From contig NZ_PVNL01000139.1 in the NCBI RefSeq assembly GCF_002994635.1, forward strand, positions 18,055 to 82,054: DNA of 64,000 bases. Direction: 5' to 3'. The first letter of the stretch is position 1; every line of letters begins with the position of its first letter. Positions 7,069-62,795 of the stretch are shown in pieces. Source of the stretch: Enhygromyxa salina (GTDB taxonomy: Bacteria > Myxococcota_A > Polyangia > Nannocystales > Nannocystaceae). The translations under genes and the position numbers were made by a program. The notes beneath the pieces were generated by a model. The model had not been told where the DNA came from and made no database searches. It was given only the letters and a program-made list of their open reading frames with translations.

Positions 7069-7139
7069 AATTGCAGCCTAGCAGGGAATCCTCGACCCCC
7101 ACAGGGCGCCTCGGGAGAATGTCGCCTTGGCCTTCGGGA

Positions 7140-21400: not shown

Positions 21401-21583
21401 GGTGGTTGGCTCCTGTTGTCGGTGGTCCGCGCCGCCGTCGATCGGTTCACTGGGTTATGATCACCAACTGTACAGATTCTCAGACCGCACGTGGCAACAA
21501 ATCGCCGAACTCGAGGGCACCGCGGTCGAGACCCCGAAGTTGGGCAGATGCCCGCGAGTCGCGGTAGATCCCAGGACAGACGG

Positions 21584-30552: not shown

Positions 30553-30758
30553 GCAAAGACTGTACTCCGGCGCGAGCGGTTCGGCACGCTCGCGTTCGCT
30601 CGCTCGGCTGCGGGCGCGTGACCGCGTCGCGAACCTCGTCCCAAGCCCGGCCGAGCGGCCAAGCGGCTCTCGACCAAGGCCGAGTGGAACCAGGCCAAGC
30701 GTGGTCGCACCCCGGGGACTGGATCGGATCTCACGAGCAGCCGGCACCCCCCGCGAGT

Positions 30759-42168: not shown

Positions 42169-43080
42169 TCAAGGCTCGATCACCGCGGTCTGAGCGAAGC
42201 GCACCTGGGCGACGGCGCCGATCCGCGAGCGCGGGGCATCACCGTCAAACCGCGCCTCCGCGATGATCAGACCCGTCCCCGCGTCGATCTCGGGCGCGAT
42301 CGCGCTGACGCTCGCCGCAAACTCCAGCTCGGAGTCGGCGAATCGCACGACCAGCGCGGCGCCGAGCTCGAGCGCCGCGGCCTCGGTATTGGGGACGGCA
42401 AAGCGGACCAGCCGATCCTCGGAGATCAGCGAGACTACCGGGTCGCCGAGCGTGAGCGTGGCGCCAGGGTCCGCGTAGCGATCACCCACGAACGCAGCGA
42501 ACGGGGCCCGGAGCTCGGCTTCGGTCAGTCGCTCGGAGGCCGCGTTCATGCGGCTGCGCTCGCGCGCCAGCGAGGCGTCGGCGCTGCGCTTGCGCGCGTC
42601 GGCCAGCTGCTCGGCGACGCGTCGCTCGCGAACTTCGGCGCGCGAGACGAAGTCTTCGAGATCCTCGACCTCGGCTCGGTTCGCGCGGGCCTCGGCGAGC
42701 TCGAGCTCGAGCCGATCGAGCTCGGCTCGGGCGCTTCGCCAGGTCGCCGTGGCGCCCGCTAGCTCGCTGCGTTGGCCCAGCAACTCCACGATCGCGACAA
42801 CCGCGTCGGCGTCGATGCGATCCCCGACGTGGAGGTCGAGACGCTCGAGCCGCGCGATGCCGGGGGCGACCAGCACGACCTCGGCCGCAGGGACCAGGAC
42901 GCCGAGCATCGCGACATCGGCGACCTTCGTCGTGCTCGTCGCCTCCAGCTCCAACTCGAGCGCGCGCTCCGACGGCGGTGAACCCTCAGCTGCCGAGTCG
43001 ACGATCGCGGACGCGTCGGCCCCGACACAAGCGAGCGCCAGCGCGGTCACCCCGACCGGGACCCACGCCCACGCGCTCAT
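42169..43080 (-). CDS. HlyD-family periplasmic adaptor (second, short)
   Basis: Signal/transmembrane then coiled coil. ATGA overlap with the ABC transporter stop. Confidence 0.6.
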   Translation of the reverse strand: MSAWAWVPVGVTALALACVGADASAIVDSAAEGSPPSERALELELEATSTTKVADVAMLGVLVPAAEVVLVAPGIARLERLDLHVGDRIDADAVVAIVELLGQRSELAGATATWRSARAELDRLELELAEARANRAEVEDLEDFVSRAEVRERRVAEQLADARKRSADASLARERSRMNAASERLTEAELRAPFAAFVGDRYADPGATLTLGDPVVSLISEDRLVRFAVPNTEAAALELGAALVVRFADSELEFAASVSAIAPEIDAGTGLIIAEARFDGDAPRSRIGAVAQVRFAQTAVIEP

Positions 43081-45257
43081 GGGGCCTCCCGCTGGTAGAG
43101 CCGGCGGTACACGTCACCGCGGGCGAGCAGGTCGCGGTGGGTCCCGGACTCGATCACGCGACCGCGGTCCATGACCAAGATGAGGTCTGCCTCGACGACG
43201 GTGCTGAGCCGGTGGGCGATCACGATCCGCGTACAGCGAAGACTTGCGAGCGAGCGCTGGATCGCGGCCTCGGTCACGCGGTCGAGGCTGCTCGTCGCCT
43301 CGTCGAGCAAGACGATCGCGGGCTCGGCCGCGAGCGCCCGGGCGAGCGCCAGCCGCTGGCGTTGGCCCCCGGACATCGAGGCGCCGCCGTCGGCCAGGAT
43401 CGTCTCGTAGCCCATGGGCAGCTGAACGATCTCGTCGTGGATCGCCGCGCGCTTGGCCGCCTCGACGACCGCCTCGAGCGACATCTGGGGCTGACCCATC
43501 GCGATGTTCTCGCGGACCGACACGCCAAACAGCTCACCACCTTGGGTCACGACGCCGAGCTGTTCGCGGACGCTGCGAAGGTCCAAGCCGGCGAGGTCCA
43601 CACCGTCATAGCGGATCTGCCCCTGCTGGGGCCGATAGAGCCCGACGAGCAGCTTGGCGAGGGTCGACTTCCCGGCCCCGGACGACCCGACCACAGCGAC
43701 GAATTGGCCCGGGGCAATGCTGACGCTGACATCGGTGACGGCCGCTGGCGAGGACTCGGAGTAGCGGAAGCTGATCGCGTCGGCGTCGATCTGCCCGCGC
43801 AGCCGCGGCGCCCGAGTGACCGCGCTGCGGTCTTGTTCGGGCTCGGCCCCCATCACGTCGTCGATCCGCTCGAGGTAGCTACCGAGCACTTGAAACTCGA
43901 GCGCGACCCCAACTAGGGTACCGAGCGGGCCGAGCACGCCAGCGCCGAGAGCCGAGAGCCCCAGCATCGCGCCAAGTCCGATGTCGCCGCGCAGGACCAA
44001 GAACGTCCCGGTCGCAAGGACGACGAGCGGCGCCGCGACGGTGAAGGCCCGCAGCAGCGAGCTGATCAGCGCGTCGAGGCGAGCCCGGCGAAGCGAGACG
44101 TTGAGCGCGTCGACGAACAAGTTCGACCAGCGCTCGAGGGCGCGGTACTCGGCGCCCATGCTCTTGAGCGCCTCGATCCCGCCGAGCATCTCGACCTCGT
44201 AGCTCGAGGTCTTGGCCTGCGCCGCGAGGCTCTCGCTCATCAGCTCGCGCTGGACTCGGCGCGTCGCCCAGTACAGCGACAGCTGTACGCCAGCGAGCCC
44301 GAGCACGACGGCGCTCATCAGCGGGCTGGCCCACATGATCAGGACCAAATACAGACTCACCAGCGAGCCGTCGAGCAGAGCCGAGAGCGCGCCCGAGGTG
44401 AGGATCTCCCGGACCGTCGTGTTGCTGCCCAGGCGCATGAGCAGGTCGCCAGTCGAGCGGCGCTGGAAGAACGAGTAGGGCAGATCAACGAGGTGGTCGA
44501 GGAACCCGACGGTCAGCTTGGCGTCAAGCAGCGTGCGCAGCGAGACCAACACGTTGGCCCGGACCAGCGAGGCGACAAAGGTAAACAGCACCATCATCGC
44601 AAGGCCGGCGAGCAGGACCGTGAGCAGATCGAGGTCGCGCCGCGGGATGATCCGGTCGACGAGCAAAGTCGTGAGCAAGGGCAGCCCCAGCGCGAGCAGC
44701 TGCACGAGCACCGACATCATCACGACCCGGCTCCACAGCCCCGGATAGCTGAGGATCTGGGCGAAGTAGCGGCGCACGAGCGGACGGCTGCGCTGCTCGG
44801 GGGCGAACGCCTCGCTTGGCTCGAGCAGCAGCGCGACCCCGGTGCAGGCGCGGTCGAACTCGCCCGGGCTGACGCGGCGGCGACCGTAGGCGGGATCGAG
44901 GATCACCACCCCCCGACGGTCGACGCCGTCGAACACGACGAAGTGGTTGAACTCCCAGTGCAAGATGGCGCCGCGCGGCACCAGCTCGAGGTCGTCGAGC
45001 GACTCGATCTGAACGCCGCGGCCGCGCAGCCCGTAGCCGCGCGCGGCACGAAGGATCGCCAGCGCGCTGACGCCGTCACGATCGGCCGCGGTCGCCTCAC
45101 GCAGCTCCTCGAGCGGCCGGTCGCGGCCGTAGTAGCGCAAGACCATGGCCAGGCAGGCGGCGCCACAGTCCGCCGCGGTCAACTGGGCGATGTGCTCGAG
45201 TCGGCGGCGGCCCGAGGCCCCGAGACGACGCAGCGCGGGGAGTCGTTGAGCGGTCAC
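43077..45257 (-). CDS. peptidase-C39-domain ABC transporter (bacteriocin/RiPP leader-cleaving exporter)
   Basis: N-terminal C39 Cys motif QLTAADCGAACLAMVLRYYG. Six-TM transmembrane domain. Walker A GSSGAGKST. ABC signature LSGGQRQR. Walker B ILLDEATSSLD. Confidence 0.9.
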   Translation of the reverse strand: MTAQRLPALRRLGASGRRRLEHIAQLTAADCGAACLAMVLRYYGRDRPLEELREATAADRDGVSALAILRAARGYGLRGRGVQIESLDDLELVPRGAILHWEFNHFVVFDGVDRRGVVILDPAYGRRRVSPGEFDRACTGVALLLEPSEAFAPEQRSRPLVRRYFAQILSYPGLWSRVVMMSVLVQLLALGLPLLTTLLVDRIIPRRDLDLLTVLLAGLAMMVLFTFVASLVRANVLVSLRTLLDAKLTVGFLDHLVDLPYSFFQRRSTGDLLMRLGSNTTVREILTSGALSALLDGSLVSLYLVLIMWASPLMSAVVLGLAGVQLSLYWATRRVQRELMSESLAAQAKTSSYEVEMLGGIEALKSMGAEYRALERWSNLFVDALNVSLRRARLDALISSLLRAFTVAAPLVVLATGTFLVLRGDIGLGAMLGLSALGAGVLGPLGTLVGVALEFQVLGSYLERIDDVMGAEPEQDRSAVTRAPRLRGQIDADAISFRYSESSPAAVTDVSVSIAPGQFVAVVGSSGAGKSTLAKLLVGLYRPQQGQIRYDGVDLAGLDLRSVREQLGVVTQGGELFGVSVRENIAMGQPQMSLEAVVEAAKRAAIHDEIVQLPMGYETILADGGASMSGGQRQRLALARALAAEPAIVLLDEATSSLDRVTEAAIQRSLASLRCTRIVIAHRLSTVVEADLILVMDRGRVIESGTHRDLLARGDVYRRLYQREAP

Positions 45258-46228
45258 GGGGCCTTTGAAGTGGAGTGGGATGGGTCGCCCGGTACCAGGG
45301 TCTCGAGCAAGGTCTCGAGCAGCGTCACCGAGCGCAGCTTGGCCTCGAGCGTGCCCTGCATGCCGTCGAAGATCCGGTAGTGGGTGTCGTTGGCCGCGAA
45401 CGAGTCTGAGCGCAGCTCGGTCTCGACCACGACGATCGGCCCGCGCAGCTCGACGCTGCCTTGGCGATCGCGTCCGAGGTAGCGCATCGCCTCGGCCGGA
45501 CCGATGACCTCGTCGGCGACGGAGCGAACGACCACCTCGCTGCGGCTGTCGGAGAAGCCCTCGAGTTCGAGGTAGACCTGGGTGTCGGCAGCGCTGAGCA
45601 GCGGTCGGTAGTGCCCGGGGAACAGGCCGACGACGACGGTCCGCGCGTCGTCCTGCTCGAGCGAGACCAGCGCGTCGCCGAGCACGACCGGCTGGCCCCG
45701 ACGCACGCGCACGTCGGACACCACGCCGGACTCTGGGGCGACGATCGTGCGTCCGCGCAGCTTGGCCCGGGCCAGCTCGACGGCCGCGTCAAAGCTGGCG
45801 AGTCGCTGCCGCTTGCCCTCGCTGTCGCGCTGCGGGGCGCGAAGCAGCTCGAGCAGCTGGCGTGTGTAGGCCTGCTCGGCACGCTCGAGCTCGGCGCGCT
45901 CGCTCGCGTCATCGAGGCGAACCAGCACCGCCCCGGTCGCGACCCGCTGCCCCGACCGAACCTCGATCTGCTGGACGGTCCCGGACACGGCCGAGGTCAC
46001 CAGAACTCGACCCTCGCGGCGAACCGTGGCGATCCCTTGGGCGTACTCGCCGATCTCTGCAGTCGCCGCGAAGATCGTCGCGCTCACGAACACGGCGAGC
46101 AGCACGAGCTCGGCCAGGCGGGTCCACCCCGAGACCGCGCCGAGCGGTCGCCCCGGTCGATCACCGCAACCGTGCGCGTTTAATGCCGCAGGCCGGAAGA
46201 TCGAGCGCGCGGGCGCCGTCGCGTTCAT
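45254..46228 (-). CDS. HlyD-family secretion adaptor
   Basis: Transmembrane anchor LVLLAVFVSATIFA, coiled-coil and beta-barrel regions. ATGA coupling on both sides. Confidence 0.7.
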   Translation of the reverse strand: MNATAPARSIFRPAALNAHGCGDRPGRPLGAVSGWTRLAELVLLAVFVSATIFAATAEIGEYAQGIATVRREGRVLVTSAVSGTVQQIEVRSGQRVATGAVLVRLDDASERAELERAEQAYTRQLLELLRAPQRDSEGKRQRLASFDAAVELARAKLRGRTIVAPESGVVSDVRVRRGQPVVLGDALVSLEQDDARTVVVGLFPGHYRPLLSAADTQVYLELEGFSDSRSEVVVRSVADEVIGPAEAMRYLGRDRQGSVELRGPIVVVETELRSDSFAANDTHYRIFDGMQGTLEAKLRSVTLLETLLETLVPGDPSHSTSKAP

Positions 46229-47238
46229 GAGGCCGTCCGCGTCGCCCGAGCGTGAGCGCTGGCGTGGCCGACCAGCGCGTCGCACAGCGGCCCGCAGATG
46301 TCGACGCCTGCGCGCTGCTCGAACCCGATGAACATCGCCGAAGGGTTGAGCTCGAGGATCTTGTAGCGCCCGTGACGGTCGGCCTTGATGTCCATGCCCG
46401 TGTACGGAAGCCCGATGATCGCGGCCGCGCGCACACAGCTGGCCGCGACCTCGGGCGCGAGCTCGATCGCCTCAATCCGCTGTTCGTGCTGGCGAAAGTC
46501 GATCGCGTCCGTCACGATTCGCAGCGCGCAGACGACCTGGCCGTCGATCACATAGACGCGGACGTCGTCGCCAGGCAGCAGCTCCTGAAAGCAGACTGGG
46601 GCCGCGCCGAGCTTGGCGAGGCGCTCGGGGGACAGGTCGGCGGCTTCGACCTTGCGGGTCGCGGCCCCGCCAGCGACGGGCTTGAAGATCGCGTCGCGGC
46701 CCTCACAAAATCGCAGCACCGCCGCGGGGTCGTTGGTCCACAAGCTGTCGGGCGTCGGCAGCCCCGCCGCACGCAGCAGCGCGAGTTGGTACGGCTTGGT
46801 GATGTTGTTGCCGACCGTCGGGGGGTTGTAGAGCGGCACGCCGAGGTGCTCCCAGCGCAGCAGGATCGCCGACAGCAGCGTCGATCGCTCCCGAAACGCG
46901 AGCACCGTGCGACGCCAGTCCTCGCGCATGGCCTCGTCGGCCTCCACGCCGAACCCCGCCGGGCTCTGGTAGAGGCTGCGCACGTAGACGGCGGCCGGCC
47001 GCGCGATGCGGTGGCCCGCGATGTCGATCTGCTCGGGCCCGCCGCCCAGGCTGACCGCGAGCTGCTCGGGGAACTCGCGGGCGTCGAGGACCGTGGGCTC
47101 GTGACCGCGGGCGCGGACACCTTCGTAGACGGCGCGGGCGTGGGCATCCTCGAGGGCGCCGACGATGACGATGGGAGATACGGACACGGCTGGCTGCTCC
47201 GGGGAAGCGAGGGTTGAAGGTGCCCGCCGGGGCCGCAC
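46225..47238 (-). CDS. ATP-grasp macrocyclase (RimK-like; graspetide omega-ester ligase)
   Basis: ATP-grasp fold motifs (AIFKPVAGGAATRKV, ILELNPSAMF). Immediately downstream of the precursor. Confidence 0.75.
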   Translation of the reverse strand: MRPRRAPSTLASPEQPAVSVSPIVIVGALEDAHARAVYEGVRARGHEPTVLDAREFPEQLAVSLGGGPEQIDIAGHRIARPAAVYVRSLYQSPAGFGVEADEAMREDWRRTVLAFRERSTLLSAILLRWEHLGVPLYNPPTVGNNITKPYQLALLRAAGLPTPDSLWTNDPAAVLRFCEGRDAIFKPVAGGAATRKVEAADLSPERLAKLGAAPVCFQELLPGDDVRVYVIDGQVVCALRIVTDAIDFRQHEQRIEAIELAPEVAASCVRAAAIIGLPYTGMDIKADRHGRYKILELNPSAMFIGFEQRAGVDICGPLCDALVGHASAHARATRTAS

Positions 47239-47265
47239 GAGCGGGCCCCGGCGAGCGAGGGTCGC

Positions 47266-47502
47266 CTAGCTGAGGGCGTCTTCTTCGCCGAGGGCGAGGG
47301 TGGTCGGGCCATCCTCCTCACCGATCGCGAGGGTGGTCATCACGTCTTCCTCGCCGAGCGCCTTGGTCGTCGGGTTGCAGTGGTCTTCCTCGCCGATCGC
47401 GAGGGTGGTCGCGATGGGGCCACCCTTGCCGCCGGTCACCTGACCGAGGTCCTCGATGTAGAGATCCTTCAGCTGCTTCTTGTCAGTCTTATTGTTGCTC
47501 AT
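47266..47502 (-). CDS. graspetide (plesiocin-like, group 2) precursor peptide with four TTxxxxEE core repeats
   Basis: MSNNKTDKKQLKDLYIEDLGQVTGGKGGPIATTLAIGEEDHCNPTTKALGEEDVMTTLAIGEEDGPTTLALGEEDALS. Leader with a LxIEDL-like motif. Four T(T/K)xxxGEED cores. AAGGA ribosome-binding site 7 nt upstream. Confidence 0.8.
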   Translation of the reverse strand: MSNNKTDKKQLKDLYIEDLGQVTGGKGGPIATTLAIGEEDHCNPTTKALGEEDVMTTLAIGEEDGPTTLALGEEDALS

Positions 47503-47953: not shown

Positions 47954-48607
47954 TCACGGCGAGTCGGGGCACGCCGCGTCGCCGCACACGAGGCTCAGCC
48001 CGTCGGGGCACAGCGTCGGCTCGCCCGCCGCACAGGTGTCGAACCGGCAGCCCTGCGTGCCCGGGTCGCCGTCGGGGCAGGTCAGCACGCAGCTCGAGCC
48101 ACTCTCGCAGTTAGCCGCACAGTTGTGGTCCGAGCACCGAAACGCGCACGCCGAGCCGGGGCCGCAGGTGCAGGTTCCGTTGGCGCAGGTCCCCGCGCAG
48201 TCGGGATTGTCGCCGGCGCAGGTGATGTGGCACGGGCTCGCGTCGCACAAGAACACGCAGCTGCTCCCGATGTCGCAGGTGCACTCGCCGTTGGCGCAGG
48301 TCCCCACGCAGTTGGAGCCGGGCTCGCAATCCACGTGGCACGGCGGCGCCGCACACTCGAACCCGCACGAGCTCCCGGGCCCGCAGGTGCACTCACCGTT
48401 GGCGCACTGGCCCACGCAGTCCGGGTTGTCGCCTTCGCAGTCGACGTGGCAGGGCGGCGCGGCGCATTCGAACTCGCAGGAGCTGCCTGCTCGACACACG
48501 CATGTGCCGTCGCTGCAGTCCACGGCGAGGGTACAGCCCGCGGCGACGCCGAGGGCGAAGCTGACGACGGCCGCCAGGGCCAGGTGCATGCGCTCAAACA
48601 TGATCAT
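47954..48607 (-). CDS. secreted Cys-rich protein with four roughly 38-aa repeats
   Basis: Signal MIMFERMHLALAAVVSFALGVAAGC. Repeats of C.CGPGSSC.FECAAPPCHVDCEGDNPDC.G.CANGEC. Confidence 0.55.
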   Translation of the reverse strand: MIMFERMHLALAAVVSFALGVAAGCTLAVDCSDGTCVCRAGSSCEFECAAPPCHVDCEGDNPDCVGQCANGECTCGPGSSCGFECAAPPCHVDCEPGSNCVGTCANGECTCDIGSSCVFLCDASPCHITCAGDNPDCAGTCANGTCTCGPGSACAFRCSDHNCAANCESGSSCVLTCPDGDPGTQGCRFDTCAAGEPTLCPDGLSLVCGDAACPDSP

Positions 48608-48844
48608 GGGTCCTCCAGTCTGGACTCGGGGACTGTCTTGTTCGGGGGGCGATCGAAGCCCCCACGCTCGACTCACCGGCCAACCTCGACTCACCGGCGA
48701 ACGAAGTCGACCTGCGCTCAATACACCTCGATGGGCGGCGCGAAGTTGGCCTGCTCCGTGCGGACGCGCACGGCCTCGCTGCGCTCAGCACCGACCACCG
48801 CCGGAAGCCCAAGCTAGCGCCGCCATTGGCTACGATGTCGATCG

Positions 48845-49996
48845 ATGAGCCGGCTGGTCTTCCACAGCATGTACCCGGACATGAAGCTGCCGGTGTCCGG
48901 AGAGCAGGTCCTGGGTCCGACCACGCTGCCCAAGCGGGCGCGCTCGTTCTGCAAGCCGATGACCGACGAGGTCCGCTCCGGCGTCTATCTTCACGCGCCG
49001 ATCGAGTTCGAATTTCGCCACAACCGCCAGACCATGTGGCTGCGGACCACGGTCGGCGATCTCCGTCACACGTCGATCCGCCACTTCGGCGTCACGGCCC
49101 GCGCCGACCTGCTGGTCAGCGATCTGTTCCCCGAGCGCTCGCGCGAGCTCCAGGCCAGGTTCCGCGCGGTCGCGATGGGCGCGGAGTTCCCCGACGATCT
49201 CACCGACGACCCCTGCTACCGCATCAATGACCGGCTGCTATCGGCGATCTCCGAGCCCGACGCTCCCGGCGGGATGGTCATCGTCTGGCTGGGCGGGACG
49301 CTCTACACCGAGGGCGACGACAAGCTGCTGATCAAGGGCGTGCCCAACCTCTACCAGCGCAACCGCTACGAGGTCCTCGACGCGATCATCGAGAGCTCGC
49401 GCTGGCACGGCTGGGTCGGCGCCGTGATCCGCAGCTACGACGAGAACACGTGGATCCCAGTCTCGGCCGCCGAGCCGTTCACCAAGGCGATGATCCTCGG
49501 CCCACGAACCGAGCTCGAGATCGTCCCCTTCGATCAGCTGCAGCGCGAGGTGCTCGTCGATCCGCTGCGCTGGAGCGACTTCGACGCGACCTACGCCCGG
49601 CCGCCGGGCAAGTACCTGCGGGACCTTCGACAGGGCGGAAGCTGGGACACCGAGTGGAAGAGCAAGCTCGACCTGCGCCCGCCCGCGCGGCTACCCTCGC
49701 CGCAGCTCGGCGCCCCCTCGACGCGGATCGCCGACGAGACCGAGCTGAGCTTCTTCGAGACGCGGCTGCGGCTGGTCGAGGATCTGCGCGCCGCGGACCG
49801 AGCGATCGAGATCCACCACAACGGCCGAGTCGCGCGCTTTGGTGGCGCCGACGCGTGCGAAGTCGTCGACGAGCTGTGCGCGTGGCCGCGGCTGTCGGCG
49901 GCCGAGCTGGCGACCCGGACCCCGTTCGAGATCGGCGAGCTGCGCGAGTTCTTGCAGCGCCTGGTCGAGGCCAGCGTCCTCAACCCTGTCGCGTGA
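48845..49996 (+). CDS. hypothetical protein
   Basis: 383-aa ORF with plausible composition. Convergent with the JmjC gene. Confidence 0.4.
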   Translation: MSRLVFHSMYPDMKLPVSGEQVLGPTTLPKRARSFCKPMTDEVRSGVYLHAPIEFEFRHNRQTMWLRTTVGDLRHTSIRHFGVTARADLLVSDLFPERSRELQARFRAVAMGAEFPDDLTDDPCYRINDRLLSAISEPDAPGGMVIVWLGGTLYTEGDDKLLIKGVPNLYQRNRYEVLDAIIESSRWHGWVGAVIRSYDENTWIPVSAAEPFTKAMILGPRTELEIVPFDQLQREVLVDPLRWSDFDATYARPPGKYLRDLRQGGSWDTEWKSKLDLRPPARLPSPQLGAPSTRIADETELSFFETRLRLVEDLRAADRAIEIHHNGRVARFGGADACEVVDELCAWPRLSAAELATRTPFEIGELREFLQRLVEASVLNPVA

Positions 49997-51353
49997 TCCG
50001 CAGCAGGCCATGCTCGACCATGACCCGCAGCAACGGCTCGACATCGGTCCAGGCGAAGCGCTCGTCTGCGTCGGTCCACGCGAGGGCGTCGGCGGCGACG
50101 AAGCGCTCGCGGGCGAGCAGCTCGCGGACCAGAGGTAGGGCCGCGACGGGCAGCGACAGCGACTTGGCCCCGGCGTGGAGCTCGATCGTGGGCGCGCGCT
50201 CGCGAGCCGGGCGCAGTCGGATCGGACAGCGACGATCAACCTCGAGCAGCTCGTCGCGCATGAGCTCGGGCACGGCGCCACGCGGTTGCGGCGGTTGGGG
50301 TGACGCGCAGGTCGAGGCCGACCACAGCTGCGTCAGCGTGTCCTCGTGGCGGTCCGGATCGGCGAGCAGCTCGGCGAGCGCCCCGAGTCGCCCGCGCATG
50401 TAGGCCCACAGCTCGTCGGTGGTCGTCACCCCTGCCCCCGCGGGCACCAACGGCGGCGGCCGACGCCACTCGAGCTCGCTACGCAGCTCACGCTCGAGCC
50501 ACACGTGCAGGAGATCGAGCACGCTGCGATCCTCGAGGAACAGGTTGAGCGCCAGCGAGTATCCGTGCGCCTCCGCGCGGTGCCAGGTCCCGGGCGGGAG
50601 GCACAGGAGGTCCCCAGGCTCGAGCGTGACCGACACGAACGCGCGCTCGTCGGGCGCCGCGGGTTGCTCCCACGCCTCCGGGGTCCGGCCGTGAGCGCGG
50701 CGCAACACCCGGACGCCGTCGCCGTCGATGTTGCAGTTGGCCCGCGGGTGCTCGACCGCCGGCGCTCGCCCGTACCGCCAGGTCTTGCTGCCCTCGAGCT
50801 GGATCGAGATCGCCGCGCGGGCGTCGAAGTGAGTCCCGAACCCGCAGCCATCGTGCGACAGGTAGCAGTTGACGCCGACGACCCCGGTGTAGCCGAGCTG
50901 CGCCCGGGTCACCCGCGCGAGCTCGGCCAGCTGGGCGTCGCGTCGCTCGACCCGGCTGACGCAGATCGTGGCGCCCGCGTCGAGGATCGGACCAATCGCC
51001 TCGTGGTTGACGCGAACCATCGGGATCGAGCGAGGCTCGGCGGCGCGATCGAAGCTCGCCTCGATCAGCAGCCCTTCGTCGGCGGCCGCGGCCTCGCGAT
51101 CGGCGAGCAGCGCGGCGCGCAAGTCCTCGAGCGAGAACAACCCCTCGACCTTGGCCGCCGCGCCGGGGATGTGTAGCGGCGCCCGGCCAAAGGCGCGGGC
51201 GAAGTCCTCGAGGCCGACGGGCTCGATCAACCGCGCGAACGCGTCCGGTCCGATCTCGCGGCGCATCGTCGAACGCGGCGCCGGGGTCGACGCGCCGCGC
51301 TCGCTGGCGAGCGCAGCGAACAGGGCCGAGAAGTCGATCGCTCGCGTGCGCAT
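49980..51353 (-). CDS. JmjC/cupin_4 family Fe(II)/2OG oxygenase-like protein
   Basis: Starts MRTRAIDFS (TGATG overlap with the upstream stop). Facial triad context GFGTHFDARAAISIQLEGSKTWRY ... PPGTWHRAEA. Confidence 0.7.
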   Translation of the reverse strand: MRTRAIDFSALFAALASERGASTPAPRSTMRREIGPDAFARLIEPVGLEDFARAFGRAPLHIPGAAAKVEGLFSLEDLRAALLADREAAAADEGLLIEASFDRAAEPRSIPMVRVNHEAIGPILDAGATICVSRVERRDAQLAELARVTRAQLGYTGVVGVNCYLSHDGCGFGTHFDARAAISIQLEGSKTWRYGRAPAVEHPRANCNIDGDGVRVLRRAHGRTPEAWEQPAAPDERAFVSVTLEPGDLLCLPPGTWHRAEAHGYSLALNLFLEDRSVLDLLHVWLERELRSELEWRRPPPLVPAGAGVTTTDELWAYMRGRLGALAELLADPDRHEDTLTQLWSASTCASPQPPQPRGAVPELMRDELLEVDRRCPIRLRPARERAPTIELHAGAKSLSLPVAALPLVRELLARERFVAADALAWTDADERFAWTDVEPLLRVMVEHGLLRITRQG

Positions 51354-52075
51354 CAGTCGACCGCCGCGAGCGGATCGGGGTTGGGGTGCTCGAGCCAGCC
51401 CCGCTCGGGCCGTGACCAGCCCCGCTCGGCGCCGCCGAGGGGCTTCGCCGCCAGCGCTGGCGTGGTGAACAGGCCCGTCCACGAGATGCGTTCGGCGCCG
51501 CTGCGGTTGGGCATCACGCAGTGCTCGACCCACGAGGGAAACAGCGCGAGGTCTCCGGCGGCCGGCTGGAGCTCAAACCACCTGGGCACGCTAAACGGCT
51601 CGAGGTCGAGCACGCACTCGCGCTCGACCCGGGTCAGGTAGGCGTCGGGGTTCTCGACCCGAAACCCGCCCGAACCCGGAGGCGCCTGAGCGTAGTAGGT
51701 CCCGCTGAAGGTCGAGCCCCCGTGGCCCCAGTGCTCGTGGGTGTGCGTCGCGCAGCCGGGCCCGCTGATGTTGACCCACAGCCCCACGTGCTCCCACGGG
51801 TGCGCCTGTGCTCGCCACCCGACTCGCGCCCACAGCGCTTCGATCGCGAGGTCGAACGCCGAGCGGAGGTCGGCGTAGTCCGGGGCGCGGTGCAGCTCGT
51901 CCTGGCTGTGCCAGGTGCTCTCGCCCTGGTAGTTGCGCCCTCGCGGATCGGCCCGACGTTCGGCCTCGGCCTGGGCCACGAGCGCCGCCGTGAGCGGCTC
52001 GTGCCCGTGCATGCGGACCAAGAAGCAGGGGATGCCGAAGGTGTCGAGTTCGATCAGCTCGGGGCGCAGGGACAT
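51353..52075 (-). CDS. putative 2OG-Fe(II) oxygenase-like protein (TIGR02466/PF13759-like)
   Basis: Starts MSLRPELIELD. Motif HTHEHWGHGGSTFSGTYYAQ resembles the HxH...SGVYY of that family. Confidence 0.4.
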   Translation of the reverse strand: MSLRPELIELDTFGIPCFLVRMHGHEPLTAALVAQAEAERRADPRGRNYQGESTWHSQDELHRAPDYADLRSAFDLAIEALWARVGWRAQAHPWEHVGLWVNISGPGCATHTHEHWGHGGSTFSGTYYAQAPPGSGGFRVENPDAYLTRVERECVLDLEPFSVPRWFELQPAAGDLALFPSWVEHCVMPNRSGAERISWTGLFTTPALAAKPLGGAERGWSRPERGWLEHPNPDPLAAVD

Positions 52076-52080
52076 GACGT

Positions 52081-53334
52081 TCACCGGCTTGCAGACGACG
52101 GGGACGCGACGACCTCGAGGATCTCGGCGGTCCACAGCACGCGCAAGATCGCACACAGCTCGCTGTCGCTGCGATCCAAGAAGCGCGCTCGCAGCTGCGC
52201 GAGGTCGAAGGCCGAGGCGCGCGCGCCGATCCAAGCGAGGACCTCGCGCGGGGCCGAGGACGAGGCGCGGATCGACAGCAGCACCGCGTCCTGCTCGTAG
52301 ACGACGAGCGTCACCCCGTCCCCGTCGTCGCGCCACTCGAAGCGAACGCCCGGGCGGAGCTCGAAGGCCGCGACGTCGGCGAGCAGCCCGGCGTCGCGGC
52401 CGAGCCCGCCGAGTAGGAGATCGATCGGCCGCAGCCCGGCGAGCTCGGCCTCGAGCGAGCGACGGTGGGCCGCGAGCTCGGCGAGCAGCGTCGCGCTGGT
52501 CAGTGACCCGGTCTCAATCGGTGCGCGCAGCTGCGGCTGCTCGAGCGACACGCGCTCGACGATCGCGCGCAGCAGCCCGCCCCAGGTCGGCGCCTCGAGC
52601 ATGATGTCGAGGTGGACCGAGTCGCTCAGCGGCGTCGTCGTGTGCCAGTAGCCCCGCGGCAAGAACAGGACCGATCCGGGCTCGAGCACCACGCTGTCGA
52701 GCGCCTCTGGCTCCCGCGCGTGGTCGAACAGCAAGACCTGCTCGAGGCTCGGGCTGGCGCCACCGAAGTGGTTGAAGGGCGGGTTCGGCACACAGGTGTT
52801 GGGCGCGTACTGCCAGCGCTTGCGGCCCGCGAGCTGCACGACCAGGCCCTCGCTGTTGTCCCAGTGCAGCGGCGGGGTGTGGGGCGAGCCCTCGCGGACC
52901 GCGAACAGGTTGCACGCGACCCGGGTCCGGGCGATCCCAAGCTCGTCGGCGAGGCGGCGGAGCGTCGTGGTCAGGCGCGGGAACCCGACGACCTTTTCGA
53001 GGTAGAGCTGCATCCCGGCCTGATACAGGGACAGCGCGCCGCTGACCTGGCGCTCGCTCAGCCGCCGCCCGCCGCCAACGCGCTCGGGGGTGAACGTGAC
53101 CTCGTCGCGGCCGAGCTGCAGGCGCGCGAGCTCGGCCTCGCCTGTGGTCAGCGCCGCGCTCGGGTCGACGAGCTGCTCGAGCTCGAACAGCGCGGCCCAG
53201 TCCGCGAGCGCGCCTTCGGCCACGAACGGACGGCCCGGCCAGTGCTCGCGCACGAAGCTCTCGCTGCGCGTGGGCGAGCCCAGCAGGGCCCCGAGGATCG
53301 ATGGCGGATCGAGCGCTTCGGCCATGGCGAGCAC
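52081..53334 (-). CDS. JmjC/cupin_4 family oxygenase-like protein
   Basis: PPLHWDNSEGLVVQLAGRKRWQY ... LPRGYWHTTT. Confidence 0.7.
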   Translation of the reverse strand: MLAMAEALDPPSILGALLGSPTRSESFVREHWPGRPFVAEGALADWAALFELEQLVDPSAALTTGEAELARLQLGRDEVTFTPERVGGGRRLSERQVSGALSLYQAGMQLYLEKVVGFPRLTTTLRRLADELGIARTRVACNLFAVREGSPHTPPLHWDNSEGLVVQLAGRKRWQYAPNTCVPNPPFNHFGGASPSLEQVLLFDHAREPEALDSVVLEPGSVLFLPRGYWHTTTPLSDSVHLDIMLEAPTWGGLLRAIVERVSLEQPQLRAPIETGSLTSATLLAELAAHRRSLEAELAGLRPIDLLLGGLGRDAGLLADVAAFELRPGVRFEWRDDGDGVTLVVYEQDAVLLSIRASSSAPREVLAWIGARASAFDLAQLRARFLDRSDSELCAILRVLWTAEILEVVASPSSASR

Positions 53335-53337
53335 CGG

Positions 53338-55650
53338 TCAGGGGGGCATCCGCCCGAGGCGGAGATCAGCGATTGTGAACGGTTCGCCGGCGCGACCGAG
53401 GCGCGCGCGGTAGTCGAGCACCCGATCCGGGACGTGGACTGGATGCGGGAGCGCGTCGAACATGCCCGTGACGACGACGCTGACCACGTGGACGCCGAGC
53501 TCCGGCGGCACCGGATAGGCGAACGCGCAGGCCTGCGTGCGCGGGCTGGCGGCGAGGATCCGCTGGACCACGACGTCGATGCAGCGGTCGATCGTGTCCC
53601 CGGGCGCGGCCGCGTCGGGCAGCGAGCTGGGGAGCTCGGCGAGCCTGCATGACCCCTCGATCCGCCCCCAGACCCGCGCGCGGTGCTCGTAGCTGTTGAG
53701 CACGCTCCCGCGGCTGCGGAGCGGGTCGCCGCGGTCGACGATCGCGTCGTAGCACAGGCCCTGGAACGCCTCGGTCAAGGCGCGACGCAGGGCGAGCACC
53801 GGCGAGAGGTGACAGCCGAGCCCGGTCGCCCAGTAGTTCACGTGGTCGTCGCGCGCACGCACGGCGGCCTCGACCACAGGGACACCGATGTCGTTGGTCA
53901 GGTCGCGCAGCTGGATCTCGTAGCCAGCCGCGTCGAGGGCCTCGATCACGGCGCGCGCGTGGACGTCGTCGACGCTGTCGAGCTCGACGGCGGCGAAGCC
54001 CAGCCCGGTCGCCGCCGCGGCGAAGCTCGCGTCGTGCTCGACGACCTCGAGCAACCCCTCGAGCACGGCCTCGTTCCAGGCGGTGCCGGCGGCGATGCCC
54101 GACGAACCACGCTCGGGCAGCACGAATTCGCTGCCGGCGAAGTCCGCACGCGCGAGCCCGTGGGCGCTGGCGGCGGGCAGCCAGAGCGGCCGGCGAGCAG
54201 CGAGGTCCGCGAGGTCGACGGCCTCGACCCAGTCGAGCATCGCGTCGGCCGGCCGGGGCACGCGGCCGCGCGGCTGGACCTGCGGCACCTGACCCGCGCA
54301 AAAAAAGTCGAGATCGAGGGTCGGAACGCCAAGCGCGTCAGCGGGCCCGCGGATGAGATCGAGGGGACCCACGCGACGGGCGAAGGTCTCCTCGAACCAC
54401 TCGTAGACCGCCGAGCACCACGCCTGGGCGGCGCTCAGGCCCTTGCCGAGCCCGCGCGCCTCATCGCCCGAGCACAGCCTGGGGTCACGGCGAAAGGGCA
54501 GCGTCGCGGAGACCTTCACGAACTCGATCTCCGCGAGCGCCGGGTGGCGGGCGATCAAGTCCGCCGGCCCGCGGGCGTGACGAATGTCGAGCTCGGCTCC
54601 GAGCTTGGCCAGCGCGCGCTCGCCGAGCGCTCGCGCGACGCTCGGCGGGACGCTGCGCAGGCCCGTGAGGACATCGACGACCTCTATCGAGCGCGAGCCT
54701 CCGTCGCGCTCGGGCTCGCTGGTGGTCGCCGTGGTCGAGCCTGCGATCGTCGAGATCGTGCGGACGAGCCCGCGACAGTGGGGGCAGCGGGTCATCGGTC
54801 CGATCGGTTGCCGACGCACGCGCCCGCCCCGGTCGACGACCGTCAGCGCCGTCGCGGGCTCCGGCGCGCGGTCGTCTGCGTAGGCGTCGAGGGCCGCCGC
54901 GATCGCGCCGACGAGGGTCAGGCGCTGGGCGAGCGCCCCCTCGACGGCCCCATCGACGGGCCAGACCGGGAGCGTGAGCTGGTCGAGCACGCCCACGGCC
55001 TCATGTGGTCGCTCGGGGAAGTAGTAGCGAGCCAGCCCGCACATCAGGCAGGGGGTGCGCGCGGGGATCATCAGCGGGCCGAGCACGACCTCGTCACCGG
55101 TACAGCTGACGAACAGCGCCTCGCGATCGGCAGCCAGCAGCGCGTCGGTCAGCGCGAGGGCGTCGCGCAGCGGACAACCGTCGAGGACCACCAGGCTCAG
55201 CTCCGGGCAATCTCCAGCGCGAACGGGCAACGCGAACTCCGTGGTCTCGCGCACGAGCCTGAGGTGGGCGCCGAGGTCCGCGAACAGCTCCGCGCCGAGC
55301 CGGCCCGAGCGGACCCCCGCGACCCGCAGCGATCCCAGCCCCGGCGAGCTCCTTGGCCGCTCGTTCGCGAGCCGGTCGACTAGCCGGTCGAGCACCACCT
55401 CGACGTCGCCCCGCTCGTAGCGGTGGGCCAGCGCCTCGACGGCGGCGTCTCGCGAGCCCGCGCTGTTCAGCGCGGCGAGCAGCTCGATGACGACCTCGGC
55501 GGGCATCCCCTCGATCTGGTGGAGGCGGCCGCCAGCGTGGAGCAGCACGCGACCAGCGTCGTCGGCCAGGACTTCGGCGAACTCGGGCGCGAGCGTCTGC
55601 AACGGCGCGCTCACCCGTCCCCCGATCGCGGCGCCGACAGGATCGGCCAC
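53338..55650 (-). CDS. fused cyclodehydratase: N-terminal E1/ThiF-like domain with CxxC pairs, plus C-terminal YcaO domain
   Basis: YcaO signature SSGIAAGTAWNEAVLEGLLEVVEHDA (compare SNGLAAGNTLEEAILQGLLELVERDA). N-terminal CLMCGLARYYF and CPHCRG zinc-ribbon-like pairs. 770 aa. Confidence 0.8.
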   Translation of the reverse strand: MADPVGAAIGGRVSAPLQTLAPEFAEVLADDAGRVLLHAGGRLHQIEGMPAEVVIELLAALNSAGSRDAAVEALAHRYERGDVEVVLDRLVDRLANERPRSSPGLGSLRVAGVRSGRLGAELFADLGAHLRLVRETTEFALPVRAGDCPELSLVVLDGCPLRDALALTDALLAADREALFVSCTGDEVVLGPLMIPARTPCLMCGLARYYFPERPHEAVGVLDQLTLPVWPVDGAVEGALAQRLTLVGAIAAALDAYADDRAPEPATALTVVDRGGRVRRQPIGPMTRCPHCRGLVRTISTIAGSTTATTSEPERDGGSRSIEVVDVLTGLRSVPPSVARALGERALAKLGAELDIRHARGPADLIARHPALAEIEFVKVSATLPFRRDPRLCSGDEARGLGKGLSAAQAWCSAVYEWFEETFARRVGPLDLIRGPADALGVPTLDLDFFCAGQVPQVQPRGRVPRPADAMLDWVEAVDLADLAARRPLWLPAASAHGLARADFAGSEFVLPERGSSGIAAGTAWNEAVLEGLLEVVEHDASFAAAATGLGFAAVELDSVDDVHARAVIEALDAAGYEIQLRDLTNDIGVPVVEAAVRARDDHVNYWATGLGCHLSPVLALRRALTEAFQGLCYDAIVDRGDPLRSRGSVLNSYEHRARVWGRIEGSCRLAELPSSLPDAAAPGDTIDRCIDVVVQRILAASPRTQACAFAYPVPPELGVHVVSVVVTGMFDALPHPVHVPDRVLDYRARLGRAGEPFTIADLRLGRMPP

Positions 55651-56759
55651 GGCGGCTCGGGCGTCGCCGCCGGATCCAGCCCACCGAGGCCGAACTCACC
55701 GACGATCGGCTCGCTGAGCGGATCGACGCCGGTGAGCCCGGCGAGCAGCTCGGTCTCAAACCCACCGCCGTAGGCACACGGGGCCAGGCCCAGCGCCGTC
55801 GCTACCAGATAGAAATACGCGTAGAGGCAGCCGACATCCTTGAGCTGGCTGACGTAGGCGATGTGATCGTACTTGTAGGCGACCCGCGCGATCCGGCTGG
55901 TCACGAGCAACACGATCAGCGGCAGCTTGGCGCCGCCCTTTGCGGCCGAGACCGAGGCACCGCGCTCGACGAGCTCGGCGATCAGCGAGGCCTCGGCCCG
56001 GAGGGGCTCGAGCGCGTGGCGCTGGGGGCAGTAGTGATAGACGTCGGGCGCGAGCCCCTCGACCGCGGCCGGTGACACGACCGGATAGATCTCGTGAGCG
56101 TAGAGCCCGCCCGCCGAGGGGTAGAGGCGGTGCTGGAGGACGCGACCGTCGTCGAGCTCGCGCGCGTCCCAGCTGCGCGCCGTCCAGTGAAAGAACTCGC
56201 CGAGCTGGTCCAGGCTGATGGTCGCGGTCGGCGGACTGAACGACCGGCGGCGCACCAGCACCTGCCAAAAATCGACGGCCGCGGGCTCGGGCTCCGGGAG
56301 CGCGATCGCCGTCGCGCTCATCGGTGGCTTGGCGTGCGGCTCGGAGCGCGTCAGGCCCTCGAAGCGATAGCGCGCGAGGGTCTGGGGCCGACACTCGCGA
56401 CTGTGTCGCTGCAGCGCGAGCTCGGGCGCGGCCCAGTAGCTCGACGGATCGAGGGCGCCGTCGACATCGGGCGGCCGTGACTCCTGCTCGGGTCGGACCA
56501 GGATCCCCGCCGCCTTCAGCGTCCGACAGGCCGCGATCACGTCGACCCCGAGCTCACGCGCGCCGCCGCTCGCCTCGACCTGTGCGGGGCTCGTGGGCAC
56601 GCGAAACCAATGCAGCACTTGCACGAGCGCGGCGTCGTCACAGACCAGCGCCTTGCCCGTGCGAAGGTTGCGGACGACCAGCTCACCCACCTCCCATGTC
56701 ACCGTGGTGAAGCGAGAGATCCGCAGCGGCTCGGTCGGATCAAGTTCCATCTCGCTCAT
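55611..56759 (-). CDS. SagB/McbC-type FMN-dependent dehydrogenase (nitroreductase fold)
   Basis: Starts MSEMELDPTEPL in an ATGA overlap with the upstream stop. YPSAGGLYAHEIYPVV matches the SagB-type dehydrogenase signature. Confidence 0.65.
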   Translation of the reverse strand: MSEMELDPTEPLRISRFTTVTWEVGELVVRNLRTGKALVCDDAALVQVLHWFRVPTSPAQVEASGGARELGVDVIAACRTLKAAGILVRPEQESRPPDVDGALDPSSYWAAPELALQRHSRECRPQTLARYRFEGLTRSEPHAKPPMSATAIALPEPEPAAVDFWQVLVRRRSFSPPTATISLDQLGEFFHWTARSWDARELDDGRVLQHRLYPSAGGLYAHEIYPVVSPAAVEGLAPDVYHYCPQRHALEPLRAEASLIAELVERGASVSAAKGGAKLPLIVLLVTSRIARVAYKYDHIAYVSQLKDVGCLYAYFYLVATALGLAPCAYGGGFETELLAGLTGVDPLSEPIVGEFGLGGLDPAATPEPPWPILSAPRSGDG

Positions 56760-57598
56760 TCGGGCAGCCCGAGCTCGGCGGCCTTGGGGTAGACCTCGCG
56801 CCGATAGCTGGGTTTGTTGGCGAACGCGAAGGGGACCGACATGAAGGTGCCGAGCGACAGGCGCAGTTGCTCTCGACGGCTCGGCGCTGGCACCACCGCG
56901 CGACTGATCGCCGAGTGGAACTGCCAGCCGGGGTACACGACCGTCCGATTGCAGCGTTGGCGCACGAGAGCCAGCCGCTCCCACGCGTCGGCAGCAACCT
57001 CGCCGCCGACCCGCTGCCGCCAGATCTCCGCCTGCAGCTGCTGAAGGTCGGGTCGCGGCAAGGCCTCGATCGCGGCCGGCAGCTGCGCGAGGAACTCCAA
57101 CCCGAGCAGCTCCTGCAACCACAGCAGCTCGACCGGATCCTTGTCGCTCATCCAGCAGGTGAGCCCGGTCGCTCGGTGGCGCCAAAACGCTGTGCCCTCG
57201 TCATCGTGGTCGGTGTCTGACAGGTAGGTGACCGCCGCCAACCACACGTCGTGATCCGCGTGCTGATCAATCAGATCTGAAGGACGCTCGCGCAGCCCGA
57301 GCGCCGACGCGTAGAAGTCCGCAGCGATCACGTCGAGGTCGATCGCCTTCGGGTAGCCCTCGGGCCACAGCTGGTCGAGGATCACCCGCGCGAGCAGCTC
57401 GACGAACGCCCGCCCCCCTATCGGAGACACGCGCGCGCGCAACCCGGGGTAGCCCGAGTCCGGGATCGCGTAGCCCTGCTCGAGCGCGGCCTCGCGGACC
57501 TGCTCGATATCGACGAAGGTGTCGTCGATGACGGCGATCACGGACCCCGCTAGGCGGAGGACTTCGACGCGACGCTGAGAATTAAGCTCGAGCCTCAT
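56756..57598 (-). CDS. hypothetical protein in RiPP-like operon (ATG at 57598 proposed; the ORF track begins at a TTG at 57610)
   Basis: Translationally coupled to the SagB-like gene. Its start codon lies in the 3' arm of a 12-bp hairpin. Confidence 0.4.
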   Translation of the reverse strand: MRLELNSQRRVEVLRLAGSVIAVIDDTFVDIEQVREAALEQGYAIPDSGYPGLRARVSPIGGRAFVELLARVILDQLWPEGYPKAIDLDVIAADFYASALGLRERPSDLIDQHADHDVWLAAVTYLSDTDHDDEGTAFWRHRATGLTCWMSDKDPVELLWLQELLGLEFLAQLPAAIEALPRPDLQQLQAEIWRQRVGGEVAADAWERLALVRQRCNRTVVYPGWQFHSAISRAVVPAPSRREQLRLSLGTFMSVPFAFANKPSYRREVYPKAAELGLPE

Positions 57599-57628
57599 CC
57601 GAATACCCAATGGATTGGATGAGGCTCG
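57589..57628 (-). promoter_or_regulatory. perfect 12-bp stem hairpin between the precursor and downstream genes, sequestering the downstream ATG
   Basis: cgagcctcatcc-(16 nt)-ggatgaggctcg. The ATG of the next gene is inside the stem. Confidence 0.35.
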
Positions 57629-57718
57629 TCAGCCTAGGCCGAGCACCAGCGCGAGAGCCCGTGGGAGCACCCATTCGGCTCATTTGGTTCCCCGGCGGCG
57701 CAGCCCTCGGCAAATTGC

Positions 57719-57874
57719 CTAGCGGTCGACGCCCACGGAGCCGTGGTTGCCGGAGCGCGACCAGCCGGCCTCGACCTTGCCGCCCTTGATCTTCTCCGTG
57801 GTCTCGCGATCGAGCTCGCGGATCTCGAGGTCTTTGATGTTCAGCTTGCGTTTGGGCTTGTTCTCGTCTGTCAT
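57719..57874 (-). CDS. candidate RiPP precursor peptide (51 aa): Lys-rich leader, GG motif, short Gly/Ser-rich core
   Basis: MTDENKPKRKLNIKDLEIRELDRETTEKIKGGKVEAGWSRSGNHGSVGVDR. AGAGGGAAC ribosome-binding site 7 nt upstream. AT-rich codon use against the GC-rich background. Located between the YcaO/SagB/JmjC genes. Confidence 0.6.
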   Translation of the reverse strand: MTDENKPKRKLNIKDLEIRELDRETTEKIKGGKVEAGWSRSGNHGSVGVDR

Positions 57875-57969
57875 TTTCGTTCCCTCTATTCTCGTGCTGC
57901 TATCTGGGCAACTTCGACCTCCGCAGGCTACTCGACCGCCAAACTTGCGCGCAAGGGTTTTCGCTCGCC

Positions 57970-60065: not shown

Positions 60066-60166
60066 GCCAGCGATTCGAATGATCGAGCATCGAGTCGGCA
60101 GAGTCAAACTCGACGACGACGATCGCCGCTTCTCCGCTACTCTCGGTCGACTCTCGCCGTCGGCAC

Positions 60167-62783: not shown

Positions 62784-62795
62784 GACGGCTCGCGC

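Follow-up and report, generated by a model that had tools for sequence, protein, structure and literature searches.

A candidate plesiocin-family graspetide biosynthesis and export cassette in Enhygromyxa salina

How does a plesiocin lose its leader and leave the cell that makes it? Plesiocin is a model for graspetide enzymology, yet its in vitro reconstitution used parts that lie dispersed in Plesiocystis pacifica, and we did not find its leader removal or cell exit addressed in the graspetide literature that we surveyed. Here we consider these questions from a 64,000-nucleotide stretch of Enhygromyxa salina DNA (assembly GCF_002994635.1, contig NZ_PVNL01000139.1, positions 18,055 to 82,054), referred to below as the window, in which open reading frame (ORF) calling identified five co-directional minus-strand ORFs occupying positions 42169-47502. 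These encode a precursor peptide, an ATP-grasp enzyme, and a peptidase-containing ATP-binding cassette (ABC) transporter (PCAT) set between two HlyD-family adaptors. We estimate at roughly four in five the probability that they represent a self-contained cassette of the plesiocin family (group 2a graspetides) which, judged by the homologies of its products, would make and export a multivalent serine-protease inhibitor.

All five ORFs have the codon signature of real genes, with a GC content of 0.86-0.90 at third codon positions (GC3) and 0.41-0.52 at second positions (GC2), in a window of 64-73% GC and a genome of 69%. All five proteins have been deposited for Enhygromyxa salina with identical starts (PRP94805 to PRP94801), where they are named only in general terms ("hypothetical protein," "ATP-grasp domain-containing protein," "efflux RND transporter periplasmic adaptor subunit," and "peptidase domain-containing ABC transporter"; RND, resistance-nodulation-division); the genes are public, yet they have not been annotated as a graspetide cluster. 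Pfam searches of the four genes 3' of the precursor identified a RimK-type ATP-grasp, then HlyD_D23/HlyD_3/Biotin_lipoyl_2, then Peptidase_C39 with ABC_membrane and ABC_tran, and finally HlyD_3, in agreement with the gene series proposed in a preliminary description of this sequence. That description also had every junction coupled by a 4-nt ATGA overlap, which requires correction. Three of the four junctions overlap by 4 nt, two of them as ATGA (ATP-grasp/HlyD1 and PCAT/HlyD2) and the other as GTGA (HlyD1/PCAT, where PCAT starts at GTG), while the precursor and ATP-grasp genes do not overlap and are 78 nt apart (TAG at 47266, GTG at 47187). The 3' end of the operon meets a convergent plus-strand gene. 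Two alternative starts were considered and rejected: GTG 47238 for the ATP-grasp lies in the loop of an RNA hairpin and its exact product is absent from the public collection, in which the product of GTG 47187 is found (PRP94804) and upstream of which is a GGAG sequence; GTG 46285 for HlyD1 likewise has an exact product that is absent from the collection.

The precursor gene (47266-47502, ATG at 47502 to TAG at 47266; PRP94805) encodes a PsnA2-like peptide of 78 residues, with the sequence MSNNKTDKKQLKDLYIEDLGQVTGG followed by KGGPIATTLAIGEEDHCNPTTKALGEEDVMTTLAIGEEDGPTTLALGEEDALS. Its leader (residues 1-25, 47428-47502) ends at the double-glycine site VTGG, and by motif scan it contains the four TTxxxxEE cores that had been noted initially: TTLAIGEE (core 1, 47386-47409), TTKALGEE (core 2, 47347-47370), a second TTLAIGEE (core 3, 47314-47337), and TTLALGEE (core 4, 47281-47304). 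A six-frame scan of the 64-kb window for TTxxxxE[ED] returned these four cores and one isolated chance match at 63470, and it detected no second precursor or other multi-core ORF in the window. Identity to full-length PsnA2 (PPSIR1_14310, P0129), which has four cores in the same order, is 72%, and the precursor also matches the crystallized PsnA2(14-38) chain of Protein Data Bank (PDB) entry 7DRM, LFIEDLGKVTGGKGGPYTTLAIGEE, with E=3e-7; the two leaders have L-x-IEDLG-x-VTGG in common. The concern that the precursor might not be translated does not hold, given its coding signature (GC3 0.86, GC2 0.41), a Shine-Dalgarno sequence (AAGGA, 4 nt 5' of the ATG), and its approximately 170 homologs (173 at E<=1e-3). 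Among 149 precursor sequences of the family, three cores are found in 77 and four in 53 (the range in the family being one to six), the dominant cores are TTLAIGEE, which is the commonest with 176 occurrences, and TTLALGEE, and the residue at core position 3 is L in 366 cores, M in 49, Q in 20, K in 19, and H in 11. The family has 15 instances of the Lys-containing core 2 sequence, TTKALGEE, among them the last core in Nannocystis.

The ATP-grasp gene (46225-47187, 320 residues, PRP94804) starts at a GTG, with GGAG 10 nt upstream. Its product matches PsnB (PDB 7DRM-7DRP) with E=7e-134 and a global identity of 65.9% over 311 aligned positions, PsnB being PPSIR1_03893 (P0076), which is 100% identical to the 7DRM chain. 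This identity is too low for the window to be P. pacifica DNA, a possibility that the exact E. salina entries also speak against. The structural study of PsnB identified Arg72, Arg213, and the D233-F234-R235 loop as conserved across graspetide macrocyclases and Arg101 as specific to group 2a, placed Lys172 and Thr180 at the nucleotide, and described a pocket for leader residues Phe15 and Asp18 that comprises Tyr171/Ile193/Leu196/Val201/Phe203 with Arg192 and Arg181. The E. salina equivalents are, in the same order, R70, R210, D230-F231-R232, R99, K169/T177, F168/L190/L193/V198/F200, R189, and R178. Thus R72, R101, R213, the DFR loop, K172, T180, R181, R192, V201, F203, and L196 of PsnB are all identical, the changes are conservative (Y171 to F, I193 to L, and R195 to K), and R70, R99, R210, and D230-F231-R232 are invariant in an alignment of 17 sequences. 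There were 249 homologs at E<=1e-20, mostly from Nannocystaceae (Enhygromyxa, Nannocystis, Pseudenhygromyxa, Plesiocystis) and metagenomes, and a copy with 96% identity is present in an independent assembly. With the SAV_5884, MvdC, and MvdD models the protein did not reach the cut-offs.

Comparison with P. pacifica psnA2 and psnB had been suggested as the way to check the initial reading, and it bears that reading out, as both proteins are closely related to their counterparts and the functional residues of the enzyme are identical or conservatively replaced. Placement of the enzyme outside the graspetide macrocyclases, which would have counted against the reading, was not found; it falls well inside them. 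The locus combines a PsnB-type ATP-grasp, repeated TTxxxxEE cores, and an LYIEDL leader with a matching enzyme pocket, all characteristic of group 2 graspetides, and the assignment as plesiocin-like is supported by the homology to PsnB and PsnA2, the leader pattern, and the residues of the transporter peptidase described below.

The leader also has the attributes of a peptidase substrate. The consensus of 125 unique family leaders reads L(-15) K D L(-12) F I E D(-8) L(-7) G Q V(-4) T G(-2) G(-1), and the E. salina leader conforms to the double-glycine pattern, with Gly-Gly at -2/-1 and hydrophobic residues at each of the expected positions, V(-4), L(-7), L(-12), and L(-15), consistent with the predicted cleavage site VTGG/K of the preliminary description. 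The LFIEDL motif that the PsnB structural study found to be needed for binding of the enzyme (LYIEDL in E. salina) overlaps leader positions -12 to -7, and therefore one short leader appears to serve both the ATP-grasp and the peptidase. With regard to residue 15 of the leader and its pocket residue (PsnB 171), the combination is Phe/Tyr at 20 loci, Tyr/Phe at two (the window, 47458-47460 and F168, and L069), and Tyr/Tyr at one (L001). All the Tyr leaders come from Enhygromyxa, so these cases are not independent, and the apparent co-variation is only a hint.

The predicted peptidase is part of PCAT (43077-45257, 726 residues, GTG start; PRP94802), which has a Peptidase_C39 domain (PF03412, residues 21-149, 107 bits; 44811-45197) followed by ABC_membrane (179-444) and ABC_tran (508-656). 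Residues 19-722 align with residues 12-722 of PCAT1 (4RY2, E=5e-103), and the first 160 residues are closest to the double-glycine protease domain LahT150 (6MPZ, E=1e-29). Alignment with LahT, PCAT1, and ComA showed that all four proteins share the active-site positions, namely the oxyanion Gln (IAQ) and the catalytic Cys (AADCGAAC), His (FNHFVV), and Asp (ILDPA), and therefore we predict a C39 domain of the active type, unlike the inactive C39-like domain of HlyB. These residues, the membrane and nucleotide-binding domains on the same chain, and the double-glycine leader of the cognate substrate are together what is expected of a PCAT. The closest NCBIfam model, TIGR03796, gave 602.5 bits against a cut-off of 853.3, making the protein a relative rather than a member of that family. 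An assignment to graspetide maturation would be in keeping with the literature, in which C39-ABC and HlyD are the top two export-related families linked to graspetide ATP-grasp genes and PCATs are listed among the graspetide leader peptidases.

To define the extent of the cassette, one genome per species was scanned and the resulting 74 loci were searched by tblastn with the five window proteins. All five genes were present at 16 loci (L001-L005, L007, L009, L012-L015, L019, L020, L065, L068, and L069), and in all 16 the order and direction of the ATP-grasp, HlyD1, PCAT, and HlyD2 genes are the same, the precursor lying after the ATP-grasp or downstream of HlyD2, rather than upstream, in three. 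Four other loci (L006, L008, L010, and L011) are consistent with the five-gene layout but are cut by contig ends. In some relatives there is a second precursor gene or a precursor after the ATP-grasp (L007 10968-11216, L009 7284-7499, L061 5608 and 6029). Eight genes that flank the operon in the E. salina window had no match at any of the 74 loci, which marks the five genes as a self-contained cassette; on the same basis the neighbors that had been considered as parts of the cluster (a Cys-rich protein, a 383-residue protein, the JmjC/YcaO genes, a LysR gene, and two lipoprotein-like ORFs) were rejected.

The P. pacifica locus is arranged differently. Upstream of psnB (L016 9637-11911, ABCS01000021) is a different precursor with the same leader and TTLSLQAEE-type cores; downstream there is an HlyD1 ortholog only, and the next 9 kb is unrelated (CobW, a HAD phosphatase, and a kinase-WD40 protein). 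The psnA2 gene (L075 10001-10216, ABCS01000114) is an orphan without biosynthetic neighbors: it lies on a different contig, where the genes around it are unrelated or of the xanthine-dehydrogenase type. A separate variation was observed in loci from Archangium, Actinomycetota, and Acidobacteriota (L038 7941-9980, L064 8220-9992, L066 8028-9992), where a C39-peptidase::VKOR fusion, in L038 also fused to a thioredoxin domain, lies directly upstream of a PsnB-like ATP-grasp of about 50% identity, which hints at a version of graspetide maturation that forms disulfides.

From these homologies the following pathway can be proposed. The ATP-grasp would bind the LYIEDL motif of the translated precursor, use ATP to phosphorylate two Glu residues per TTxxxGEE core, and allow two Thr hydroxyls to displace the phosphate, creating an inner and an outer lactone ring in each core, in line with the two lactones per TTxxxxEE core reported for PsnA2/PsnB. 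For the whole peptide eight esters and a loss of 144 Da (8 H2O) are predicted. The C39 domain of PCAT would then cut after Gly25 and the transporter export the 53-residue, four-hairpin product, as suggested by the domain content and synteny. The predicted monoisotopic masses with eight esters are 5236.49 for the acidic product cleaved at the double glycine and 8012.89 for the uncleaved modified precursor. The two periplasmic adaptors, one a membrane-anchored HlyD type with a short hairpin and the other a long-hairpin lipoprotein resembling MacA, would carry the product across the diderm envelope, and the last step presumably depends on an outer-membrane channel whose gene lies elsewhere.

The two adaptors are dissimilar, having 28% identity over only 182 residues (E=0.004). 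HlyD1 (45254-46228, 324 residues) has a cytoplasmic N-terminal motif that is conserved in its homologs, then a hydrophobic helix at about residues 35-57 and the Pfam domains HlyD_D23, Biotin_lipoyl_2, and HlyD_3 (lipoyl, beta-barrel); it also matches the NCBIfam models type_I_hlyD and NHLM_micro_HlyD, each below cut-off. For HlyD1 the indication of a short hairpin, 2 x about 23 residues, is weak, because the AlphaFold model from the single sequence has a predicted local distance difference test (pLDDT) score of 38. HlyD2 (42169-43080, 303 residues, PRP94801) begins with a signal peptide that ends in the lipobox-like sequence ALAC; a lipobox-like Cys is located about 30-40 residues before the conserved fold in 18 of 19 homologs, and Lys at +2 is found in none. 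Its AlphaFold model, derived from 38 sequences (pLDDT 87), comprises a disordered linker of ~40 residues, a lipoyl domain, hairpin helices at 103-140 and 147-186 (38 and 40 residues), and a beta-barrel; a membrane-proximal domain is absent. The best fold match in the PDB was Escherichia coli MacA (3FPP, E=1e-16, TM score 0.73), with MacA in the MacAB-TolC complex (5NIK) also matched. The arrangement that typifies adaptors, a lipoyl domain split by a hairpin and followed by a beta-barrel, was therefore identified in HlyD2 by its model, and HlyD1 has the Pfam domains that go with it. The preliminary description considered two adaptors flanking the transporter to be unusual; this stands when the locus is compared with other exporters, but within the cassette family the layout is the rule, being conserved in at least 16 Nannocystaceae cassettes.

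Whether both adaptors serve PCAT is the point at which an alternative survives best. It is feasible, though in our view unlikely, that only HlyD1 is the PCAT adaptor and that HlyD2 has another task, either the recruitment of a different pump or outer-membrane channel or a periplasmic role in binding the inhibitor or in immunity to it. The divergence of the two proteins would be consistent with this, as would the psnB locus of P. pacifica, which has HlyD1 alone, the NCBI naming of HlyD2 as an RND adaptor, and the profile searches of all loci, by which PsnB-like loci of distant Actinomycetota type were found to have an HlyD1-like gene adjoining PCAT and no HlyD2. However, in 18 of 19 cassettes the start of the HlyD2 gene overlaps the PCAT stop by 4 nt, HlyD2 co-occurs with PCAT in every complete Nannocystaceae cassette, its fold is that of a standard adaptor closest to MacA of an ABC pump, and no RND pump gene was identified nearby among the Pfam-scanned ORFs of the window. 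The HlyD1-PCAT-HlyD2 triad has furthermore been duplicated as a unit in a metagenome-assembled genome of Nannocystales (L012 3817-7801), where a second copy is situated 2 kb upstream of the graspetide cassette with no second ATP-grasp match near it, and the triad may be an export module that can be duplicated as a whole. HlyD2 was found only in Nannocystaceae cassettes, and HlyD1 also accompanies PCATs in monoderm relatives; our reading is that HlyD1-PCAT is the older pair, to which HlyD2 is a Nannocystaceae addition that helps to span the diderm envelope.

With respect to activity, plesiocin inhibits chymotrypsin (Ki 7.5 nM) and elastase (Ki 16 nM) and does not inhibit trypsin, and an engineered form, Psn-LLLR, is summarized in a review as inhibiting both chymotrypsin and trypsin. 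By analogy, the three Leu cores of the E. salina peptide would confer inhibition of the chymotrypsin/elastase type and the Lys core would add inhibition of the trypsin type. In the naming used for Psn-LLLR, the E. salina peptide is L-K-L-L and those of Nannocystis are L-L-L-K, which suggests, from the review's summary, that they may be natural bifunctional inhibitors. A rather improbable alternative is that the modified peptide is not a secreted protease inhibitor and instead is a signal or regulator (e.g., in development or predation control), or is directed at a non-protease target. The native role of plesiocin in myxobacteria has not been established, and double-glycine leaders and PCATs also export signaling peptides, such as ComC via ComA. 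Conversely, the characterized graspetides are all protease inhibitors according to the literature, the inhibition constants of plesiocin are nanomolar, and core position 3 is where the family's variation is focused (L, M, Q, K, and H), as expected for a specificity residue.

A more specific version of the inhibitor-and-export reading joins the adaptor and core observations: HlyD1 and HlyD2 would co-assemble around one PCAT as a hetero-oligomeric conduit, with HlyD2 acquired in diderm myxobacteria as the link to an outer-membrane channel, and the cassette would yield a bifunctional L-K-L-L plesiocin. We regard this combination as tentative and, on balance, doubtful. If it were true, the locus would represent a two-adaptor, type-I-like secretion machine dedicated to a peptide that is made by ribosomes and modified after translation (RiPP), and its product would be a natural counterpart of Psn-LLLR.

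The 78-nt spacer between the precursor and ATP-grasp genes contains a GC-rich RNA hairpin of 35 nt (47222-47256) without a U-tract. The best 46-nt window of the spacer folds at -35.3 kcal/mol and a 96-nt spacer region at -45.8 kcal/mol (z = -2.25). Hairpins of -27 to -41 kcal/mol are found 0-30 nt from the precursor stop in all 18 related loci examined, with sequences that differ, which argues for selection on structure. A run of T follows the hairpin only in the P. pacifica copy; in E. salina no canonical intrinsic terminator was called at the hairpin by the terminator scan, because no T-run follows. Read-through terminators and mRNA-stabilizing elements are common 3' of RiPP precursor genes, and the hairpin is likely to be either a partial, read-through terminator or a stabilizer of the mRNA. 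Most likely, its conservation reflects a role in holding the precursor mRNA in excess over that for the enzyme and transporter. Alignment of 18 regions upstream of the precursor showed no promoter or operator shared across genera.

Several points weigh against the cassette being a dedicated production and export unit. No PCAT or second adaptor was found within 10 kb of P. pacifica psnB, the 9 kb beyond its HlyD1 gene gave no ABC match of any kind, and the P. pacifica system works with psnA2 in trans and no nearby PCAT; therefore a dedicated exporter is not obligatory for the family. Pfam identified no outer-membrane channel family of the TolC/OEP type among the 43 window ORFs scanned, the five operon genes included, and a scan covering promoters of the sigma-70 type only found none 5' of the operon. 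The poor model of HlyD1 could be used solely for its secondary structure and as a rough guide; core position 3 as the specificity residue is taken from the review's summary of Psn-LLLR rather than from a structure; and modification, export, and inhibition by the E. salina products are assigned by homology. Since psnA2 stands alone in P. pacifica and psnB has no transporter close to it, we consider the characterized system to be a dispersed version and the E. salina cassette the complete one. That the cassette is silent or decaying, with a precursor that is not expressed, we consider very improbable: the lack of a sigma-70-like site and flanking genes that are unrelated to those of other genomes, consistent with horizontal arrival, would fit such a state, but the five ORFs are intact with a normal codon signature, conserved catalytic residues, a Shine-Dalgarno sequence, and conserved translational coupling, and the ATP-grasp has the 96%-identical copy in an independent assembly.

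Other genes in the window were also of note. A 255-residue protein with Cys-rich repeats of the CxxGxCxCxxGSSCxFxCxxxPCH type is encoded directly upstream of the precursor (47954-48721, minus strand); it had no match in Pfam, and none of the 74 related loci contains it. Just upstream of the graspetide cassette is a run of RiPP-type genes on the minus strand (49980-63947), comprising four JmjC/cupin proteins (49980-51533, 52081-53334, 57970-59268, and 59151-60362), a YcaO protein (53338-55650), a nitroreductase/SagB-like protein (55611-57185), a DUF6445 protein (56756-57610), and two radical-SAM proteins (61932-62783 and 62796-63947), and this run may be a separate YcaO-type RiPP cluster. At the other end of the window, a RiPP-modifying enzyme of the MbnB/TglH/ChrH family fused to DUF2063 (3946-5748, minus strand) adjoins a Cys-rich DUF4215 protein (2655-3908, minus strand), with an M50 peptidase nearby (6325-7077). 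On the plus strand there are a cytochrome P450 fused to cyclic-nucleotide-binding domains (21491-23740) and a 1027-residue protein (30159-33242) with a major-vault-protein shoulder domain and a weaker match to the vault repeat domain (E=6e-06), which is unusual in a bacterium.

The E. salina cassette is a complete addition to a family that is already characterized, with accessory genes of a kind already reported for graspetides; it extends that family and overturns nothing. Its added value is modest and consists of the precursor-proximal hairpin, the unlike pair of adaptors, the contrast with the dispersed type locus, and the Lys core, which suggests that nature mixes inhibitor specificities within one multivalent peptide. 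Together with its roughly 20 relatives it offers a template for the heterologous production of mature, leaderless plesiocins, and the cassette family is a means both to test C39 processing of a graspetide and to ask why a diderm PCAT carries two different adaptors.

Each component can be set against a known system. A precedent for two non-identical adaptors on one transporter is TriABC-OpmH of Pseudomonas aeruginosa, although TriC is an RND pump and the E. salina transporter belongs to the ABC type; HlyD1 has a marginal sequence match (E=0.0016) to the fused TriA-TriB chain of PDB 6VEJ. MacA of MacAB-TolC has the lipoyl domain, hairpin, and beta-barrel of the HlyD2 model, which superposes on it with a root-mean-square deviation of 3.5 A over about 250 columns. 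The identity of the two is about 20%, HlyD2 differs in its lipoprotein-type N-terminus, long disordered linker, and absence of the membrane-proximal domain, and it is paired with a PCAT whereas MacA is paired with a MacB-type transporter. The NHLP/Nif11 bacteriocin export systems (TIGR03796, TIGR03797, and TIGR03794) provide the best-scoring NCBIfam models for PCAT, and HlyD1 weakly matches TIGR03794, with both E. salina scores below the curated cut-offs (853 and 156 bits); those models describe two ABC subunits and one HlyD protein, while in E. salina two adaptors accompany a single ABC gene. PCAT1 of Clostridium thermocellum, LahT, and ComA have the same three-domain architecture as the E. 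salina PCAT and full-length homology to it, yet these are monoderm examples without an adaptor pair, in contrast to a diderm transporter that is translationally coupled to two dissimilar adaptors. The closest comparison is with plesiocin of P. pacifica SIR-1, whose precursor has the same leader motif, double-glycine site, KGGP linker after the glycines, and four TTxxxGEE cores. The Phe15 of the PsnA2 leader is Tyr in E. salina and the Tyr171 of the PsnB pocket is Phe; natural plesiocin has Leu at position 3 in all four cores, whereas core 2 of the E. salina peptide has Lys; and the parts that are scattered in P. pacifica are all brought together in one cassette in E. salina.

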